This document shows positions 7,806 to 13,987 of a DNA stretch of 26,889 nucleotides, piece by piece (positions within the stretch are counted from its first letter, which is position 1; every line of letters starts with the position of its first letter). Both the position numbers and the translations under genes were made by a program. The notes under the pieces are model-generated. The model did not search any database and was not told the DNA's origin. It was given only the letters and a program-made list of their open reading frames with translations. The stretch is from a virus (taxonomy: Duplodnaviria > Heunggongvirae > Uroviricota > Caudoviricetes). The stretch lies in the IMG/VR virus record IMGVR_UViG_2537562020_000004; one strand, 5' to 3'.

Positions 7806-10028
7806 TTGGCTGTTCAATTCGCTTATCCGTGGAACGTCCCACGGTCGGCAATCTCCAGCCCATACCTTACTTATGAGCAACAGCATCGCCGCGACCGTAT
7901 GTTCGCGGCTTTGCTGCATGCAAAAAAGGGGCTTTCTCTCCAGCCCGACTGCGTGCGGTTAGATGTTTATCGCACTGCTGCGGTGCTGGAACAAAATCAG
8001 GGTAGTCAACGAGCCAATGCATTTTTAATCAGCTTCTGCAAAAAGGCATTGCCGCGTCTTGAACTGGTCGCAAAAAAATCCGAATGCGCTGGTATCAACA
8101 GCAAGGTATCAACCGCTGTTTTTGGAAGTCATTTTGATACTCAGCAAATGCAATATCTGTCGTCACGCATGGTTAATATGGTCGCCCGATATAACCGTCT
8201 CCCGGACATGTCGCGCGCTGATGTTGACCTGTTGGCCGCTGATATTGCTAATTTCATTCGTGGTGAACTTGCCAACATTAATGACCACGGATTCGGCGAG
8301 CTTAAAACGCTGTACACCTGGTATATTCGTGCTGGCTTTATTTCCCTCCAATTCAACGTTATCCCACCACATTGGGAGCGGGTTGAAAAAAAATATGTCG
8401 GTGCGGATGAAATCGCACCGGCTATCGCCAAAATGTTTAACGATGGGGGGTGGCGCGGTCGTTTGCGCCGTGTAGCAGCTACGTGGCGCGAACACCTGCA
8501 AATTGCAGTCGGCAACGTCAGTAAGAAAAAAAACACTTACGCGAGTAAAAACTGCGTGACTGACTGGCGTGAACAAAAGCGCCGCACTCGTGAATTTCTC
8601 AAAGGTCTGGATCTCGAAGACGAAGACGGCAACCGTATCAGCCTAATTGAAAAATATGATGGCTCAGTTGCTAACCCTGCGATTCGCCGCTGTGAGCTCA
8701 TGACCCGCATTCGTGGGTTTGAAAACATCTGTAATGAGCTCGGTTATGTCGGTGAGTTTTACACTCTAACCGCGCCGTCAAAATATCACGCCACGACTAA
8801 AGCCGGTTACCGTAACAGCAAATGGAGCGGTGCCAGCCCGGCTGACACGCAAAACTATCTAACCGGTATCTGGGCGCGTATCCGTGCCAAACTACATCGG
8901 GAAGATGTCCGTATTTTCGGTATTCGTGTCGCCGAGCCCCATCACGACGGCACTCCACACTGGCACATGCTGATGTTCATGCTGCCGGAAGATGTTGAAT
9001 ATGTTCGCTCCATCGTCCGTAAATACGCATGGAAAGAAGACCGCCACGAACTGAAAAGCGATAAATCCCAAAAAGCACGTTTCCACGCGGAGTCCATTGA
9101 CCCGGAGAAAGGCAGCGCAACCGGCTATGTTGCTAAATACATTTCAAAAAATATCGACGGTTATGCTCTCGATGGTGAAACCGATGATGAAAGCGGTGAG
9201 CTGCTGAAAGAGACAGCCCCCGCCGTTTCAGCATGGGCTGCGCGCTGGCACATCCGTCAGTTTCAGTTTATTGGTGGTGCGCCGGTGACGGTTTACCGTG
9301 AGTTGCGTCGCCTCGCTGATACCGAAACCGCGCACGGTCTGAGCGTTGAGTTTGCCGCCGTCCATGATGCCGCCGACGCTGGTGACTGGGCTGGTTATGT
9401 TAATGCTCAGGGTGGGCCGTTTGTCCGTCGCGATGATTTACAGGTGCGCACACTGTATGAACCGCGTACCGAGCTTAATCAGTACGGTGAGGAAACGGTA
9501 TGTATTAAGGGGGTCTACGATTCCTCCATAGGTGCAGGAAGCCCGATTTTAACCCGGCTCACTCAGTGGAAGATTGTTCCGAAGCGTGCTGTTGATTTGG
9601 CCGTTGACCTTCAGGACGGCAAAGCCGTCCCTCGGAGTTCTGTCAATAACTGTACGGGAAGCGAAAGCGATCCACCGATACTGGATTTAACAAAACCACT
9701 GAGTCGGCGTGAAAGACGAGAATTGACCAACCGACTCAGGAAGCAAAAGCCAGCAGCACGGCGAAAATTCATCCACGGAACGGATGAGCAAAACGCAGCT
9801 ATAGCTAAAACTATCGATGAGATACATCTGACAACCGGCATTAATATCAGCCGGGGCGAAGCCCTGCACCTGATGGCCGGTGGTAAAAGTTGTTTTGATG
9901 GTAAATGGCTACGCGGAACGGCCAAAGGAGAAATATTTTCCGCAGCACCATCGCATGAGGCTAAAGCTCGGAAAATCCTTAATCGTGTTGCGGCGATGGC
10001 TGAAGCATCAAAACCAATACATGAGTAA
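7806..10028 (+). CDS. A: Replication initiation endonuclease A (rolling-circle HUH nuclease); TTG start
   Basis: 740 aa. HUH motif in EPHHDGTPHWHMLMF and catalytic Tyr region TGYVAKYISKNIDGYAL, as in P2 gpA. TTG 7806 is preceded by GGGGGG. The N-terminus MAV...YPWNVPR parallels P2 gpA. Confidence 0.9.
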   Translation: MAVQFAYPWNVPRSAISSPYLTYEQQHRRDRMFAALLHAKKGLSLQPDCVRLDVYRTAAVLEQNQGSQRANAFLISFCKKALPRLELVAKKSECAGINSKVSTAVFGSHFDTQQMQYLSSRMVNMVARYNRLPDMSRADVDLLAADIANFIRGELANINDHGFGELKTLYTWYIRAGFISLQFNVIPPHWERVEKKYVGADEIAPAIAKMFNDGGWRGRLRRVAATWREHLQIAVGNVSKKKNTYASKNCVTDWREQKRRTREFLKGLDLEDEDGNRISLIEKYDGSVANPAIRRCELMTRIRGFENICNELGYVGEFYTLTAPSKYHATTKAGYRNSKWSGASPADTQNYLTGIWARIRAKLHREDVRIFGIRVAEPHHDGTPHWHMLMFMLPEDVEYVRSIVRKYAWKEDRHELKSDKSQKARFHAESIDPEKGSATGYVAKYISKNIDGYALDGETDDESGELLKETAPAVSAWAARWHIRQFQFIGGAPVTVYRELRRLADTETAHGLSVEFAAVHDAADAGDWAGYVNAQGGPFVRRDDLQVRTLYEPRTELNQYGEETVCIKGVYDSSIGAGSPILTRLTQWKIVPKRAVDLAVDLQDGKAVPRSSVNNCTGSESDPPILDLTKPLSRRERRELTNRLRKQKPAARRKFIHGTDEQNAAIAKTIDEIHLTTGINISRGEALHLMAGGKSCFDGKWLRGTAKGEIFSAAPSHEAKARKILNRVAAMAEASKPIHE

Positions 10029-10102
10029 TTCATATCCATATCATGCACATACAGCAATCGCTCTATTCGTTTTTTTTCTTCCCATCTTTTGCCAATACGT
10101 GC

Positions 10103-10122
10103 TACTGTATAAATATACAGTA
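10103..10122. promoter_or_regulatory. LexA (SOS) box overlapping the promoter of the tum-like operon
   Basis: TACTGTATAAATATACAGTA matches the consensus TACTGTATATATATACAGTA at 19/20 positions. It is 20 nt upstream of the GGGAGGGA SD and ATG 10142, equivalent to 186 p95. Confidence 0.85.
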
Positions 10123-10141
10123 ACCCTGTGGGAGGGATTTC

Positions 10142-10324
10142 ATGGTTGGCGAACATTTCAGCCGAACGCAGCAAAAGTGGGCTTGTGTGCAATTTATTGC
10201 CGAGGTATCTCTGATTGCAAACTGCAAGCCATCAGACTTAAAGCTCGCGCTCACTCTCATTGCAGACCTAGCAAACAGCGAGAATAACGAAACCGAAGAT
10301 GATAATTTTTATAAGGCTGATTAG
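10142..10324 (+). CDS. SOS-controlled 60-aa ORF (candidate N-terminal part of a Tum-like antirepressor)
   Basis: Strong SD GGGAGGGA. It lies directly downstream of the LexA box. It ends at TAG 10322-10324, in the same frame as the next ORF. Confidence 0.6.
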   Translation: MVGEHFSRTQQKWACVQFIAEVSLIANCKPSDLKLALTLIADLANSENNETEDDNFYKAD

Positions 10325-10327
10325 ATT

Positions 10328-10561
10328 ATGAGAATCAATATCACGTTGGATAAAGAGCAAAAAATTAGTCAGGCAACATTGGATGCACTTGAGGCTGAAC
10401 TGTACCGCAATCTTCAACCTATTTACCCAAAGACTGCTATCCGAATTCGCAAGGGCTCCGCTAATGGCGTTGAACTAAGCGGTTTGAAACTGGACGAAGA
10501 TAAAAAACGAGTAATGGAAATCATGCAGCAGGTATGGGAGGACGATAGCTGGCTGCATTAA
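10328..10561 (+). CDS. DinI-family protein
   Basis: 77 aa. MRINITLDKEQKISQATLDALEAELYRNL...IMQQVWEDDSWL parallels DinI (MRIEVTI...AIDALAGELSRRI...ILQETWESADDW). Confidence 0.85.
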   Translation: MRINITLDKEQKISQATLDALEAELYRNLQPIYPKTAIRIRKGSANGVELSGLKLDEDKKRVMEIMQQVWEDDSWLH

Positions 10562-10563
10562 CA

Positions 10564-10632
10564 AACGCCGCCGGTGCTGAAACTTGCTTTCAGTGCTGGC
10601 GGGGTTGAACAACTCGCACCGCGAGGCGCTAG
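10564..10632 (+). repeat. 69-bp intergenic element, copy A (contains a 15-bp-arm hairpin at 10568-10602)
   Basis: 60/69 identical to 10969-11037. The hairpin CCGCCGGTGCTGAAA-CTTGC-TTTCAGTGCTGGCGG has three G-U pairs that are tolerated only in plus-strand RNA. Confidence 0.7.
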
Positions 10633-10756
10633 TTCTTCCTCTCAAAGTTTCTCGATGTTTTATTGGTTACACACCAGTGATGAATGGGACGTTACCTTAG
10701 CGGGTTTTATAGTGGCGCTGTGGCAGCGCTAAATAAAATTCATTGAGGGCGATAAT

Positions 10757-10966
10757 ATGCATCGACTACCGGGCGAAATTCCGCAGCACAAAACTAAAAG
10801 CATCAAACTGATGGCCATCGTTCATCGTCTGCAGCAGATAATGGTCAATGAGAATTTGACACCCGCCGAGCTGGTCGGGTGTGCCGAAATAGTCAGGGAT
10901 AATTACGGCAAGCTGGATAGCATCAGCAAGCCGACACATTACTCACCGCCACCACGTCGACCATAG
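10757..10966 (+). CDS. Hypothetical 69-aa protein, bracketed by the two 69-bp elements
   Basis: GAGGG lies 7 nt upstream of the ATG. No recognisable domain. Confidence 0.5.
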   Translation: MHRLPGEIPQHKTKSIKLMAIVHRLQQIMVNENLTPAELVGCAEIVRDNYGKLDSISKPTHYSPPPRRP

Positions 10967-10968
10967 AT

Positions 10969-11037
10969 AACGCCGCCGGAGCTGAAACTCGCTTTCAGGT
11001 CTGGCGGGGTTGAACAACGAGCTACGCGAGGCGTTAG
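10969..11037 (+). repeat. 69-bp intergenic element, copy B (hairpin 10973-11007)
   Basis: Offset is exactly 405 bp from copy A. One stem position shows a compensatory change (U-G in A, A-U in B) and one position is disrupted. Confidence 0.7.
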
Positions 11038-11099
11038 CCGGTCATAGCGTCGCAAATACTTCAACCGTCTGCTGGTTAAATAATTCGAGGTTTTTGGAC

Positions 11100-11294
11100 A
11101 TGCAAAATCCCCTTTCATCGAAAAATGACCCGTTTGCCGATTGGGCAAAGAATCTGACTTTAATGGCTTTAAATAACGACCTGAGCTCTCGCGAGGTGGA
11201 AAGCTACACCGCAAAAATGGTCGGGCAGGCCGGTAAAGATGAGCTATCAGTCGTTATCAAACACCTGTTAAATCACATCAGAATGCGCAAATAA
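11100..11294 (+). CDS. Hypothetical 64-aa protein
   Basis: ATG 11100 is preferred. The track start (TTG 11010) lies inside repeat copy B. GAGG lies ~10 nt upstream. Confidence 0.45.
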   Translation: MQNPLSSKNDPFADWAKNLTLMALNNDLSSREVESYTAKMVGQAGKDELSVVIKHLLNHIRMRK

Positions 11295-11310
11295 GAGGAA
11301 CTATATAAAT

Positions 11311-11412
11311 ATGTTATCTCTCGTTTATGAAAATCCGTGGACGACGATTTTTCTGATGATTGTTGCCAGCATGTGCCTCAACAGTGTTATTGGCGCATTG
11401 CGCGGCCATTAA
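11311..11412 (+). CDS. 33-aa hydrophobic peptide (MLSLVYENPWTTIFLMIVASMCLNSVIGALRGH)
   Basis: Below the track cutoff. SD AAGAGGAA lies 10 nt upstream of the ATG. It has one predicted TM helix and is followed by a strong terminator. Confidence 0.4.
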   Translation: MLSLVYENPWTTIFLMIVASMCLNSVIGALRGH

Positions 11413-11430
11413 TCGCGACAAAACCAGACT

Positions 11431-11460
11431 AAAACCGGCACCCTGAATGCCGGTTTTTTT
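11431..11460 (+). terminator. Rho-independent terminator ending the early/SOS transcription unit
   Basis: AAAACCGGCA-CCCTGAA-TGCCGGTTTT followed by a T-run (TTTTTTT). Confidence 0.8.
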
Positions 11461-11620
11461 ATGCCATTTTTCCGCGAATTTCCCGTTTTTTAGTCGTGCA
11501 TGCATCAGGTGCATGGTTTTGCATGCGTCAGTCTTGCCCGTTCTGTCCGTGCGCCGCCAGAGCTAGCGCGGATCCAGAGTTGTCATGCAACTGCATTAAA
11601 ACCGCCCCATAAAGCGGGCA

Positions 11621-11639
11621 GGCGTGGCGGGGAAAGCAT
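11621..11639. other. cos: cos: 19-nt cohesive-end sequence of the 186 type
   Basis: GGCGTGGCGGGGAAAGCAT equals my recollection of the 186 cohesive end (P2 is GGCGAGGCGGGGAAAGCAC). The location between the early region and Q is as expected. Confidence 0.8.
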
Positions 11640-11858
11640 TGCGCGCCAGCAGTGATGCGTAATAATAAAAATTATCCTCTGAGCGCGTCGTGATGGCGCT
11701 GTCGTGGTCGCTGCTGGTTCGTTGGTGGTCGAGTGTGTTCGTGCGCGTGAGACGCATCTGATGCGTGATGGTGGTGTGCATGGAAAAGCCACCAGGAGCA
11801 GCGGCTTTACAGGAGTGGCAGGATTCAAACTGCTAATTATGTTTCTACTATGATTAAA

Positions 11859-12863
11859 CTAATTTACATGTATGTAGAGTTCACCGTCGCCAGACCAATC
11901 GGGACACTCTAAAACAAGCCCAAACTGCTTGAATATTTCATCAATGATTATTGTTATCTCCCGAAAATCACCAAAACCTGTAATGTGCTGGTCATTAAAC
12001 TTCCCATAAAGATTCTGAAAAGCAATGCCTAATTCTGATAATTGATATCTTATCTTTGAGTTGGATAGTGTAAGGGATAGCTTTGGATCGTATTCTTTAA
12101 TATTGATGTTTAGAGAATGGACATAACCCATCGCATAAGCATAAGAGTTGATGATTAGCCTGATACGTTTTTTTACTTCAAGATACATGTCATTCAGAGA
12201 AATATTACCGTACTTATAACCCCAGATGAGTTTTTCAATCTCGTCAGATACTTCATTTACAACAGTGTCAAGATTCTCTAAAAATAAATCGACAGTTTCT
12301 TGAGGGGCAGACCCCGAAGACATGTAATTAGCGAGATATTCAGACCATGCACGCGTGGCTGAGATAAGAAGCGCGCTACCATACTCGTTGACTGTAAAGT
12401 TTTGGGCTAAGCATGTTAGTAAGTTTTTTTCATGTACGTGCACTAATTCATGGTGAATGCGATGGATGACTGCGAGGTATCCTTCTTCTTTCAGTTTTAA
12501 GAAGCTACCATCATTGAAAAGCTCAACAAAAAAATCAATCGATAGCACAAGGGTATATTCTTCATATAGCCCATCATTGCCAATTTTTGTTACTAACTGC
12601 CCGACGGCTGCGCCCTGTTTGCTATTGGTAAATGAACTAGGGGATTTGTGTTGGTAAGAGGATGTTACCTTTTGAAGAGCTTCACTGAAGTTATAGGAAA
12701 CAATCACGCATTTTAATTTGGAGATATCAAGATTGAGATTCTTTGTTAAAGCTCGGATAGCTTCTAGTGTGAAATTACCGATATTATTTGCTTCTTGCTC
12801 AGTAGCGAAACCTTCGAGGGTTATTTTAAAATCAGTTTCCAAAATATTAATCTCCGCGCCCAT
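11859..12863 (-). CDS. Orphan cargo protein with a zincin-type HExxH motif (putative metallopeptidase-like effector)
   Basis: 334 aa in AT-rich DNA. HELVH at residues 138-142 (nt 12438-12452, within IHRIHHELVHVHE), with Glu candidates 18 and 33 residues downstream. No signal peptide or TM. It sits between cos and Q. Confidence 0.75.
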   Translation of the reverse strand: MGAEINILETDFKITLEGFATEQEANNIGNFTLEAIRALTKNLNLDISKLKCVIVSYNFSEALQKVTSSYQHKSPSSFTNSKQGAAVGQLVTKIGNDGLYEEYTLVLSIDFFVELFNDGSFLKLKEEGYLAVIHRIHHELVHVHEKNLLTCLAQNFTVNEYGSALLISATRAWSEYLANYMSSGSAPQETVDLFLENLDTVVNEVSDEIEKLIWGYKYGNISLNDMYLEVKKRIRLIINSYAYAMGYVHSLNINIKEYDPKLSLTLSNSKIRYQLSELGIAFQNLYGKFNDQHITGFGDFREITIIIDEIFKQFGLVLECPDWSGDGELYIHVN

Positions 12864-12940: not shown

Positions 12941-13987
12941 TTATTCTGGGTTGTCGAGGGTGTACTCTTTGAATCTGATGACCTCCATGCCGAGCCAGTC
13001 ATTTACCTCCCTGAACCTGTCCTGTAGCGGCGACAGCTCGTTGCGCACAAATACCTTTGCCACCTTCTCAACATCACCGAGTGAACCGATATTCTCGGGC
13101 TTGCCGCCCATGAGCTGGAACGGTACGCGGTGCGCGTCCATCAGATCGGCGGCACTGGCCTTCTTGATGTTGAAAAAGTCATCCTTTGTGGCGACCTCGC
13201 TCAGTGGCACGATTTTGATGCCGTCCGGTTTTCCGCCGGGAGCGTAGAAAAACAGGTTCTTAAAGTTGCCGAGCCCTTTTGAGTTGCGCATCGCCTCGCG
13301 CAGCGATTCGACGTCGGTCGCGCTCTGCGCCGGGTCAGTCACATACATGATGTAGCCTGCGTGCGCGCCGTTCTGATAATACTTGCGGCGGAACAGCGTC
13401 GCGGATTCATTCAGCCAAGCGGAATTAAGCGCGCTGAGATATTCCGGCAGACCGTAAATCTCCTGATTAATGTCGGGCTCCAGCAGGTGAAACACGGTAT
13501 CAGGCGCGAACTCGTGCGGCTGGGGGAAGTTTTCCACAAACCAGAAAATCGAATCGTCGACTCCGCGTCGGGTGTATTTGGCTGGCGAGGCCAGCAGTTT
13601 GATTAACTGGCCGGTGACGCTGTGGCGCTGCTCAAGAAAGGCGTTACCGAACACCAGATAATCGAGCGCAAAGCGGCTGAAATCCTGACGGGATAACAAC
13701 GGGTGCGGAATGTAGGTGCTCGCGAGCACGTTACGCTTAACATAAATTGGCGAGCTGTGATGCACGGCAGAGCGCAGGCTCTTTGCCAGCCCTGAGAAGC
13801 TGACCGGCGGCTCGTACCATTTGCCGTTACTGATGCACTCGACGTAATCCAGAATGTCGCGCTTATCGAGTACCGGCACCGGCTCGCCGAAGGTGAACGC
13901 TGTCGTTTTTGGCGGTGCGCTGGCGGTCAGTTGTTGTGGTTTGCTGGCCTTTTGTGCGTTGGCTTTACGGGATTTTTGTTTACCCAT
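12941..13987 (-). CDS. Q: Portal protein (gpQ)
   Basis: 348 aa. Size, position and orientation match P2 gpQ. It is coupled to P (1-nt gap). Confidence 0.9.
   Translation of the reverse strand: MGKQKSRKANAQKASKPQQLTASAPPKTTAFTFGEPVPVLDKRDILDYVECISNGKWYEPPVSFSGLAKSLRSAVHHSSPIYVKRNVLASTYIPHPLLSRQDFSRFALDYLVFGNAFLEQRHSVTGQLIKLLASPAKYTRRGVDDSIFWFVENFPQPHEFAPDTVFHLLEPDINQEIYGLPEYLSALNSAWLNESATLFRRKYYQNGAHAGYIMYVTDPAQSATDVESLREAMRNSKGLGNFKNLFFYAPGGKPDGIKIVPLSEVATKDDFFNIKKASAADLMDAHRVPFQLMGGKPENIGSLGDVEKVAKVFVRNELSPLQDRFREVNDWLGMEVIRFKEYTLDNPE

Follow-up and report, generated by a model that had tools for sequence, protein, structure and literature searches.

The window analysed here, a stretch of 26,889 nucleotides from the virus record IMGVR_UViG_2537562020_000004 (Caudoviricetes), holds a prophage of the PSP3/186 type in which two small open reading frames (ORFs) follow a LexA box in one and the same reading frame, with a TAG stop and a single ATT codon between them. 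Such a locus raises the question whether it is a tum gene, as known from phage 186, that was broken by an amber mutation, or an operon of two genes that are naturally separate. An initial annotation, made from the sequence alone, had put forward both possibilities, and its description of the locus holds: the near-perfect LexA box directly upstream of a strong Shine-Dalgarno sequence has a single mismatch, the ORFs of 60 and 77 amino acids (aa) are found where it placed them (Table 1), and the second ORF is DinI-like (PF06183, E=7e-24). In this study I argue that the locus is very probably the SOS (p95-type) induction operon of the prophage, consisting of two naturally separate cistrons, tumA and tumB, and that TumA probably acts as antirepressor of a CI repressor of the 186 family. 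Of the suspected split tum one half of the idea stands, as the two ORFs match the two halves of 186 Tum, and the other half falls, as tum has not been split by mutation. The natural two-cistron organisation is in fact documented as tumA/tumB of phage PSP3; the split was annotated there in 2002 and appeared in print in 2002 and 2011.

Read through the TAG, the two ORFs would yield a protein of 139 aa as against 146 aa for 186 Tum, and both lengths given in the initial annotation are correct. In a tblastn comparison 186 Tum aligns to residues 16-137 of this read-through product at 36.6% identity and spans both ORFs. A recent amber mutation in a continuous 139-aa tum, which would have weakened the antirepressor and uncoupled the prophage from the SOS response except in supE hosts, would account for the shared frame with its TAG and one intervening codon, and for the continuous 146-aa Tum of 186, whose fused type is common among proteins (at least 120 clusters). 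However, a stop, be it TAG, TAA or TGA, is present in every relative examined. I surveyed the junction in 22 species-representative loci that encode a TumA relative (59-98% identity). In 21 of these, tumA ends at the same position, the exception being the truncated gene of L029 (37 aa, early TGA), and all three stop codons are used (13 TAG, 6 TAA and 3 TGA). Of the four closest species loci, two have the junction TAG-ATT-ATG unchanged, as do PSP3 and Escherichia coli EC12; L010 and L011 keep the in-frame TAG, the 3-nt spacer and the ATG, with changes in the adjacent bases. A DinI-like ORF lies at most 700 nt downstream of tumA in 7 of the 22 loci, after a spacer of 3 nt (in frame) or of 2, 13 or 17 nt (out of frame), and the remaining 15 loci have no DinI gene to which tumA could be fused.

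The same picture emerges outside this sample. Other lineages have TAA or TGA stops, spacers of 2, 11-13 or 17 nt and other frames, and the bicistronic layout recurs in Fels-2, SEN8 (TAA, 11 nt), MLG42 (TAG, 12 nt) and 500465-1 (TGA). With the 60-aa TumA as query, 208 stand-alone protein clusters were found, essentially all of them 60-61 aa long, from Escherichia, Salmonella, Klebsiella, Citrobacter, Cronobacter, Enterobacter, Kosakonia, Yokenella and others, and several of these clusters carry the UniRef name TumA; the stop position is thus shared by PSP3, the species-representative loci and about 200 protein clusters. A search of 5.8 billion sequences with the 139-aa read-through product gave no PSP3-type protein that covers both halves, the best match being TumB alone (156 bits, 55% coverage). 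Moreover, PSP3 with its identical junction is reported to be UV-inducible (PMC2771037), and its upstream gene alone is said to carry antirepressor activity, according to a personal communication (G. E. Christie) cited by Lemire et al. 2011 (PMC3121763). Because of the constant TumA lengths, the junctions in the species loci, the layouts in other lineages and the lack of a fused form, the stop between tumA and tumB is, as judged from these comparisons, natural, ancestral and conserved, and it separates two cistrons. The probability that it arose by a recent amber mutation is negligible.

A natural stop could still be leaky by design, in which case read-through or supE suppression would produce a TumA-TumB fusion as the real effector, or as an additional one, like 186 Tum. 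The in-frame TAG, the 3-nt spacer and the ATG are kept throughout the closest clade, which comprises the window, PSP3, the loci L008-L011 and EC12, despite changes in neighbouring bases; 186 makes both the fusion and an internal DinI-like product, and frameshift fusions are known, though rare, from the Fels-2 type. However, loci beyond the closest clade have the genes in different frames or 13-17 nt from each other, or lack tumB, and TAG also ends stand-alone TumA, so that ancestry explains its conservation. No read-through signal was evident, though none was specifically searched for, and the upstream gene of PSP3 is reported to be sufficient by itself (PMC3121763). Since loci outside the closest clade differ in frame and spacer, I regard a read-through effector as very unlikely. 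The chances are equally slim for the narrower proposal that the PSP3 clade exploits its UAG-AUU-AUG for low-level read-through or supE suppression, giving a minor 139-aa TumA-TumB fusion that resembles 186 Tum. If true, this fusion would tether the antirepressor to RecA filaments and would alter the dynamics of induction.

With two cistrons as the natural state, the continuous gene of 186 may be looked at from the other side. In 186 the product Tum95.5 is made from a ribosome-binding site (AAGGAGG) inside tum with GTG as start codon, and the start of TumB coincides with this GTG. The fused tum of 186 (L033, 7775-7800) keeps the full AAGGAGG 6 nt before the GTG of Tum95.5, and this retained internal site at the position of the TumB start would fit an origin of 186 Tum from two fused cistrons. 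I infer that an ancestral bicistron was fused to give 186 Tum and that this fusion became fixed, and that the PSP3-type loci are not broken versions of 186 Tum. Rare fusions of 135-144 aa, which resemble 186 Tum and arose spontaneously, are also present in the Fels-2 type, where a frameshift close to the end of TumA leads through the spacer into TumB (P0263, P0299, P0300, P0318 and P0338). Antirepressor and DinI modules therefore appear to have been fused and split repeatedly.

The initial annotation had further likened the locus to the LexA-repressed p95-tum arrangement of 186, and this likeness is borne out by an alignment of promoter and box with the p95 annotation of 186. Near-identity to 186 extends over the 60 bp that precede the LexA box, and the overlap of the box with the -10 hexamer aligns base-for-base with the annotated p95 and LexA site. 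The two hexamers are 18 bp apart, matching 186, and TTC(C/A)CA occurs at the same spacing in most of the 28 loci compared; the promoter is placed here by its homology to the p95 annotation and should be read as a putative one. The box, TACTGTATAAATATACAGTA, is the sole match to the LexA consensus at up to 3 mismatches in the window, where it is also the only CTGT-N8-ACAG site, and no such match to the consensus was obtained in 100 dinucleotide-preserving shuffles. Counting back from the start of tumA, a CTG-N10-CAG box comes after 37-42 nt (in one locus 48 nt) in PSP3, 186 and every one of the 22 species-representative loci, and after 61-67 nt in three phages of the Fels-2 type. Altogether the box is kept in 28 of the 28 loci compared. 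LexA would be expected to bind the box in the window.

At the other end of the operon a strong, conserved GC-rich hairpin follows tumB (Table 1). It has no U tract and lies where 186 has its partial terminator t95a. In E. coli EC12 both arms have changed, with complementarity retained as judged by eye, and where tumB is absent, as in E. coli 1190, the hairpin directly follows tumA. It may be a partial terminator like t95a, or an element that affects RNA stability.

TumA itself differs from PSP3 TumA by a single residue (N55I, 98% identity) and matches phrog_1993 (E=1e-31). Pfam and NCBIfam have no model for it, and a search of the PDB gave no relative of TumA, DinI alone turning up, for TumB; PADLOC gave no match for TumA, TumB or the adjacent small ORFs, and in a search of the literature the names tumA and tumB turned up only in unrelated senses. 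AlphaFold models TumA with moderate confidence (pLDDT 68) as a hairpin of two helices (H4-25 and H30-53) and an acidic tail that is disordered. Profiles built from 27 TumA sequences and from 19 Tum proteins of the 186 type align with hhalign over 32 columns, TumA 16-47 against 186 Tum 14-45 (E=9e-5, probability 59%, 34% identity).

Its presumed target, the CI repressor, is 98% identical to PSP3 CI and has the same length of 286 aa. It consists of two tandem helix-turn-helix (HTH) domains of the 186 type (PF07022), about 50% identical to each other, and a C-terminal domain, and the CI of 186 has one HTH in 192 aa. The domain search reported no autocleavage domain and no peptidase S24 match in CI. 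Three classes of TumA can be recognised that lack BLASTP similarity to each other, namely the PSP3 type, the Fels-2 type and the N-terminal half of 186 Tum, and each is paired with its own class of CI, of 286, 210 and 192 aa, respectively, with identities of 31-36% between the CI classes. The pairing does not depend on the gene next to the operon: the A protein of the window is 84% identical to that of 186, yet its CI is only 32% identical, and its TumA and CI are of another class. TumB behaves in the reverse manner: its identity between the PSP3 group and the Fels-2 group is 79-92%, against only 35% for the A proteins of these groups. In E. coli EC12 and phage 613R3, a tumA of the window type with TAG-ATT-ATG is followed by a 186-like tumB, 47% identical to the TumB of the window, which indicates recombination within the first 12 or so codons of tumB. 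The mosaic breakpoint lies at the tumA/tumB junction in both (L006, EC12, 1003-1419; L035, vB_EcoM-613R3, 703-1119), and E. coli 1190 has tumA without tumB. In these sequences the class of TumA is thus seen to track the class of CI, and TumB to be exchanged freely between lineages. Class pairing together with TumB swapping is the expected pattern if TumA is a repressor-specific antirepressor and TumB a generic, dispensable passenger.

Within the PSP3 class, covariation of TumA and CI by percentage identity is not decisive, as everything correlates with overall divergence; for this reason the comparison between classes is the informative one. Among 16 loci with a PSP3-type TumA, the second HTH of CI is 67-93% identical, the C-terminal domain goes down to 25-40%, and the first HTH is absent in three. 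The second HTH may be the part of CI that TumA contacts.

TumB belongs to PF06183 with 84.3 bits against a cut-off of 24.2, over positions 2-63 of the 63 in the profile, and it matches phrog_189 ('RecA filament binding protein DinI'). It aligns with residues 1-77 of the E. coli DinI structure 1GHH, acidic C-terminal helix included, and differs from PSP3 TumB by one residue (P31A, 99% identity). The chromosomal DinI equivalog NF007893 gives 52.3 bits, below its cut-off of 111, so that TumB is a phage DinI-like paralogue and not the host dinI. By its family, TumB would bind RecA filaments and modulate their co-protease activity. The ribosome-binding site of tumB is a weak AAGG, 11 nt before the ATG, and the gene starts 3 nt past the stop of tumA, which suggests that tumB is probably translated by coupling to tumA; lineages with longer tumA-tumB spacers have a GAGG of their own. 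A variant TumB of 134 aa (P0241), in which the stop has become a sense codon (Glu) and the protein is extended downstream, was seen on one short contig.

As the only part of the operon that belongs to a curated family and whose biochemical partner, RecA, is known, TumB could itself be proposed as the effector of induction, by stabilising or redirecting RecA filaments, with TumA as an accessory of unknown role. The annotation of 186, according to which truncated DinI-like products 'modulate SOS induction', would agree with this. However, CI has no RecA-sensitive cleavage domain, TumB is absent from 15 of the 22 LexA-controlled tumA loci, and it is swapped among phages with different repressors, whereas TumA tracks CI. 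In Gifsy prophages, non-polar deletions of the dinI homologues had no significant effect on induction (PMC3121763). TumB as the effector is therefore improbable, and I place it far behind an antirepressor function of TumA.

The following course of events is proposed for the two-cistron operon. In the lysogen, LexA would sit on the near-consensus box that overlaps the -10 hexamer and keep the operon silent. Upon DNA damage, activated RecA would bring about self-cleavage of LexA, the p95-like promoter would fire, and TumA, a helical protein of 60 aa, would be made from its strong ribosome-binding site. Direct inactivation by RecA is impossible for a CI that lacks a self-cleavage domain; TumA would instead bind this 186-family CI and keep it off its operators, so that the early lytic promoter is turned on. 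The contact between TumA and CI is suggested by analogy with 186 Tum, which prevents DNA binding by CI (GenBank note "inhibits CI DNA binding"; also PMC7708051). For 186 Tum it is known that it binds CI and that induction by UV or mitomycin C needs it (GenBank note; PMC3121763). TumB would be an optional accessory that acts on RecA filaments and tunes the SOS signal, and antirepression would not need it.

Several points weigh against this reading. That TumA and the N-terminal half of 186 Tum are homologous is likely, as their alignment is colinear and syntenic, but this homology is weakly supported (the probability of 59% given above) and rests partly on synteny. A generic scan for consensus sigma-70 promoters in 9950-11900 called none. 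The functional assignment in PSP3 is known only as a second-hand personal communication (PMC3121763). Experiments on the prophage of E. coli HS, which carries a split locus of the Fels-2 type, support the model in that induction by mitomycin C needs tum and a cleavable LexA, but the study does not state which ORF was deleted as 'tum' (PMC12055606). Finally, LexA binding, transcription and induction of the present prophage itself are predictions.

The closest known counterpart is PSP3 (GenBank AY135486 / NC_005340), which has the same order of gene A, LexA box, tumA, TAG-ATT-ATG, tumB, hairpin and gp37 homologue, and 95.2% DNA identity over the 600 bp surrounding the tumA-tumB locus. It differs in its host, which is Salmonella, and E. 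coli here, and otherwise by point differences only, with one substitution each in TumA and TumB as mentioned. Its GenBank entry describes tumA as "similar to 5' end 186 tum; UV induction of prophage" and tumB as "similar to dinI and 3' end of 186 tum". Over the same 600 bp, E. coli JKHS016 is 100% identical to the window.

The p95-tum-orf97 region of 186 likewise follows gene A, has a near-identical promoter and LexA-box region, and combines an N-terminal antirepressor module with a C-terminal DinI-like module, next to a CI of the same family. However, the two modules form one polypeptide in 186 and are split by the in-frame TAG here, the N-terminal module is only remotely related to TumA, and the CI is of the divergent, single-HTH class. 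The ORFs downstream of tumB correspond to ORFs of the PSP3 gp37 type. Lemire et al. 2011 had already likened 186 Tum to a fusion of an antirepressor with DinI (PMC3121763), and Lavigne et al. 2009 considered 186, PSP3, Fels-2 and SopEPhi UV-inducible because of tum (PMC2771037).

In the split tum of Fels-2, SEN8, MLG42 and E. coli HS (Felsduovirus, Elveevirus) a LexA-controlled small ORF and a separate DinI-like ORF also follow A, and TumB is closely similar, as stated above. However, TumA is 62 aa long in this type and has no BLASTP similarity to that of the window, the CI has 210 aa, the spacers are 10-12 nt long with TAA, TAG or TGA stops and varying frame, and the LexA box lies further upstream of the start. 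The dinI-gfoA/gftA operons of Gifsy-1, -2 and -3 and AntC of N15 likewise pair a small antirepressor, which is under LexA repression and directed at a repressor that cannot be cleaved, with a homologue of DinI (PMC3121763). In these lambdoid phages dinI comes first, and they are likened to the present locus by the logic of the operon.

Table 1. Coordinates of the predicted tum operon and of neighbouring genes in the window
Feature	Position	Strand	Remarks
Integrase	3473-4513
cI, immunity repressor of 286 aa, presumed target of TumA	4883..5743	-	PF07022 twice, PF16452
Gene A (P2 A-like replication)	7806..10028	+	84% identity to 186 A, 91% to PSP3 gp36
-35 hexamer TTCCCA of putative p95-like SOS promoter	10079..10084	+	aligns with annotated 186 p95 -35 (TTCACA)
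-10 hexamer TACTGT	10103..10108	+	first 6 nt of LexA box; same arrangement as annotated 186 p95
LexA (SOS) box TACTGTATAAATATACAGTA	10103-10122	+	palindrome, 1 mismatch to 20-mer consensus
Shine-Dalgarno GGGAGGG of tumA	10130..10136	+	read from sequence; conserved in relatives
tumA, predicted antirepressor gene (60 aa)	10142..10324	+	ATG 10142, TAG 10322-10324
TAG-ATT-ATG junction (tumA stop, 3-nt spacer, tumB start)	10322..10330	+	both ORFs in one frame
tumB, DinI-like protein (77 aa)	10328..10561	+	ATG 10328, TAA 10559-10561
GC-rich hairpin 3' of tumB	10564..10606	+	-39.4 kcal/mol, z=-4.8, 15-bp core stem

The surroundings of the operon identify the element. Gene A precedes the operon with the same synteny as in 186 and PSP3; upstream of gene A are a CII-like gene, an unannotated ORF at the position of apl (weak Cox-like match), the CI repressor and the integrase, and on the downstream side portal and terminase genes, which together mark the element as a prophage similar to P2 and 186. 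Escherichia phage vB_EcoM-613R3 shares 97% identity with the window over 23 kb, and the Salmonella phages SEN1 and PSP3 share about 89-90%. By these sequence comparisons the element is an intact-looking prophage of E. coli of the PSP3/186 type (Eganvirus). No tRNA gene was found in the whole window, so that the attachment site beside the integrase is not a tRNA detectable here, and no Rfam family was found anywhere in the window.

Three further stretches were noted outside the operon. Between integrase and cI, a protein of the DUF2511 family (phrog_2950; homologue of PSP3 gp28) is encoded on the minus strand at 4536-4946. The left flank (370-3400) resembles host DNA and holds a diguanylate cyclase with CHASE8 and GGDEF domains (370-1596) and an ORF of 160 aa (1612-2094). 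Between the side of the tum operon and the portal gene (12941-13987) lies an ORF of 334 aa on the minus strand (11859-12863), whose sole match is phrog_11743 (unknown function) and which has no match in Pfam, NCBIfam or PADLOC. In P2-like phages the interval between gene A and the portal gene is a site of variable accessory or defence genes.

The split tum is an ordinary and widespread feature, and it carries little weight as a discovery. PSP3-type tumA is present in 110 of 5426 complete E. coli genomes, and the Fels-2-type split locus in 1083 of these. As TumA has no family model, RefSeq names this presumed switch of SOS induction "hypothetical protein", which leaves an annotation gap in about 2% (PSP3 type) and about 20% (Fels-2 type) of complete E. 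coli genomes. The assignment of the antirepressor to the upstream gene was previously backed by a personal communication only; the tracking of CI classes by TumA, together with an optional and exchangeable TumB, now lends it support in silico. In this family of phages, the single Tum protein of 186 then looks like a derived fusion of two cistrons.

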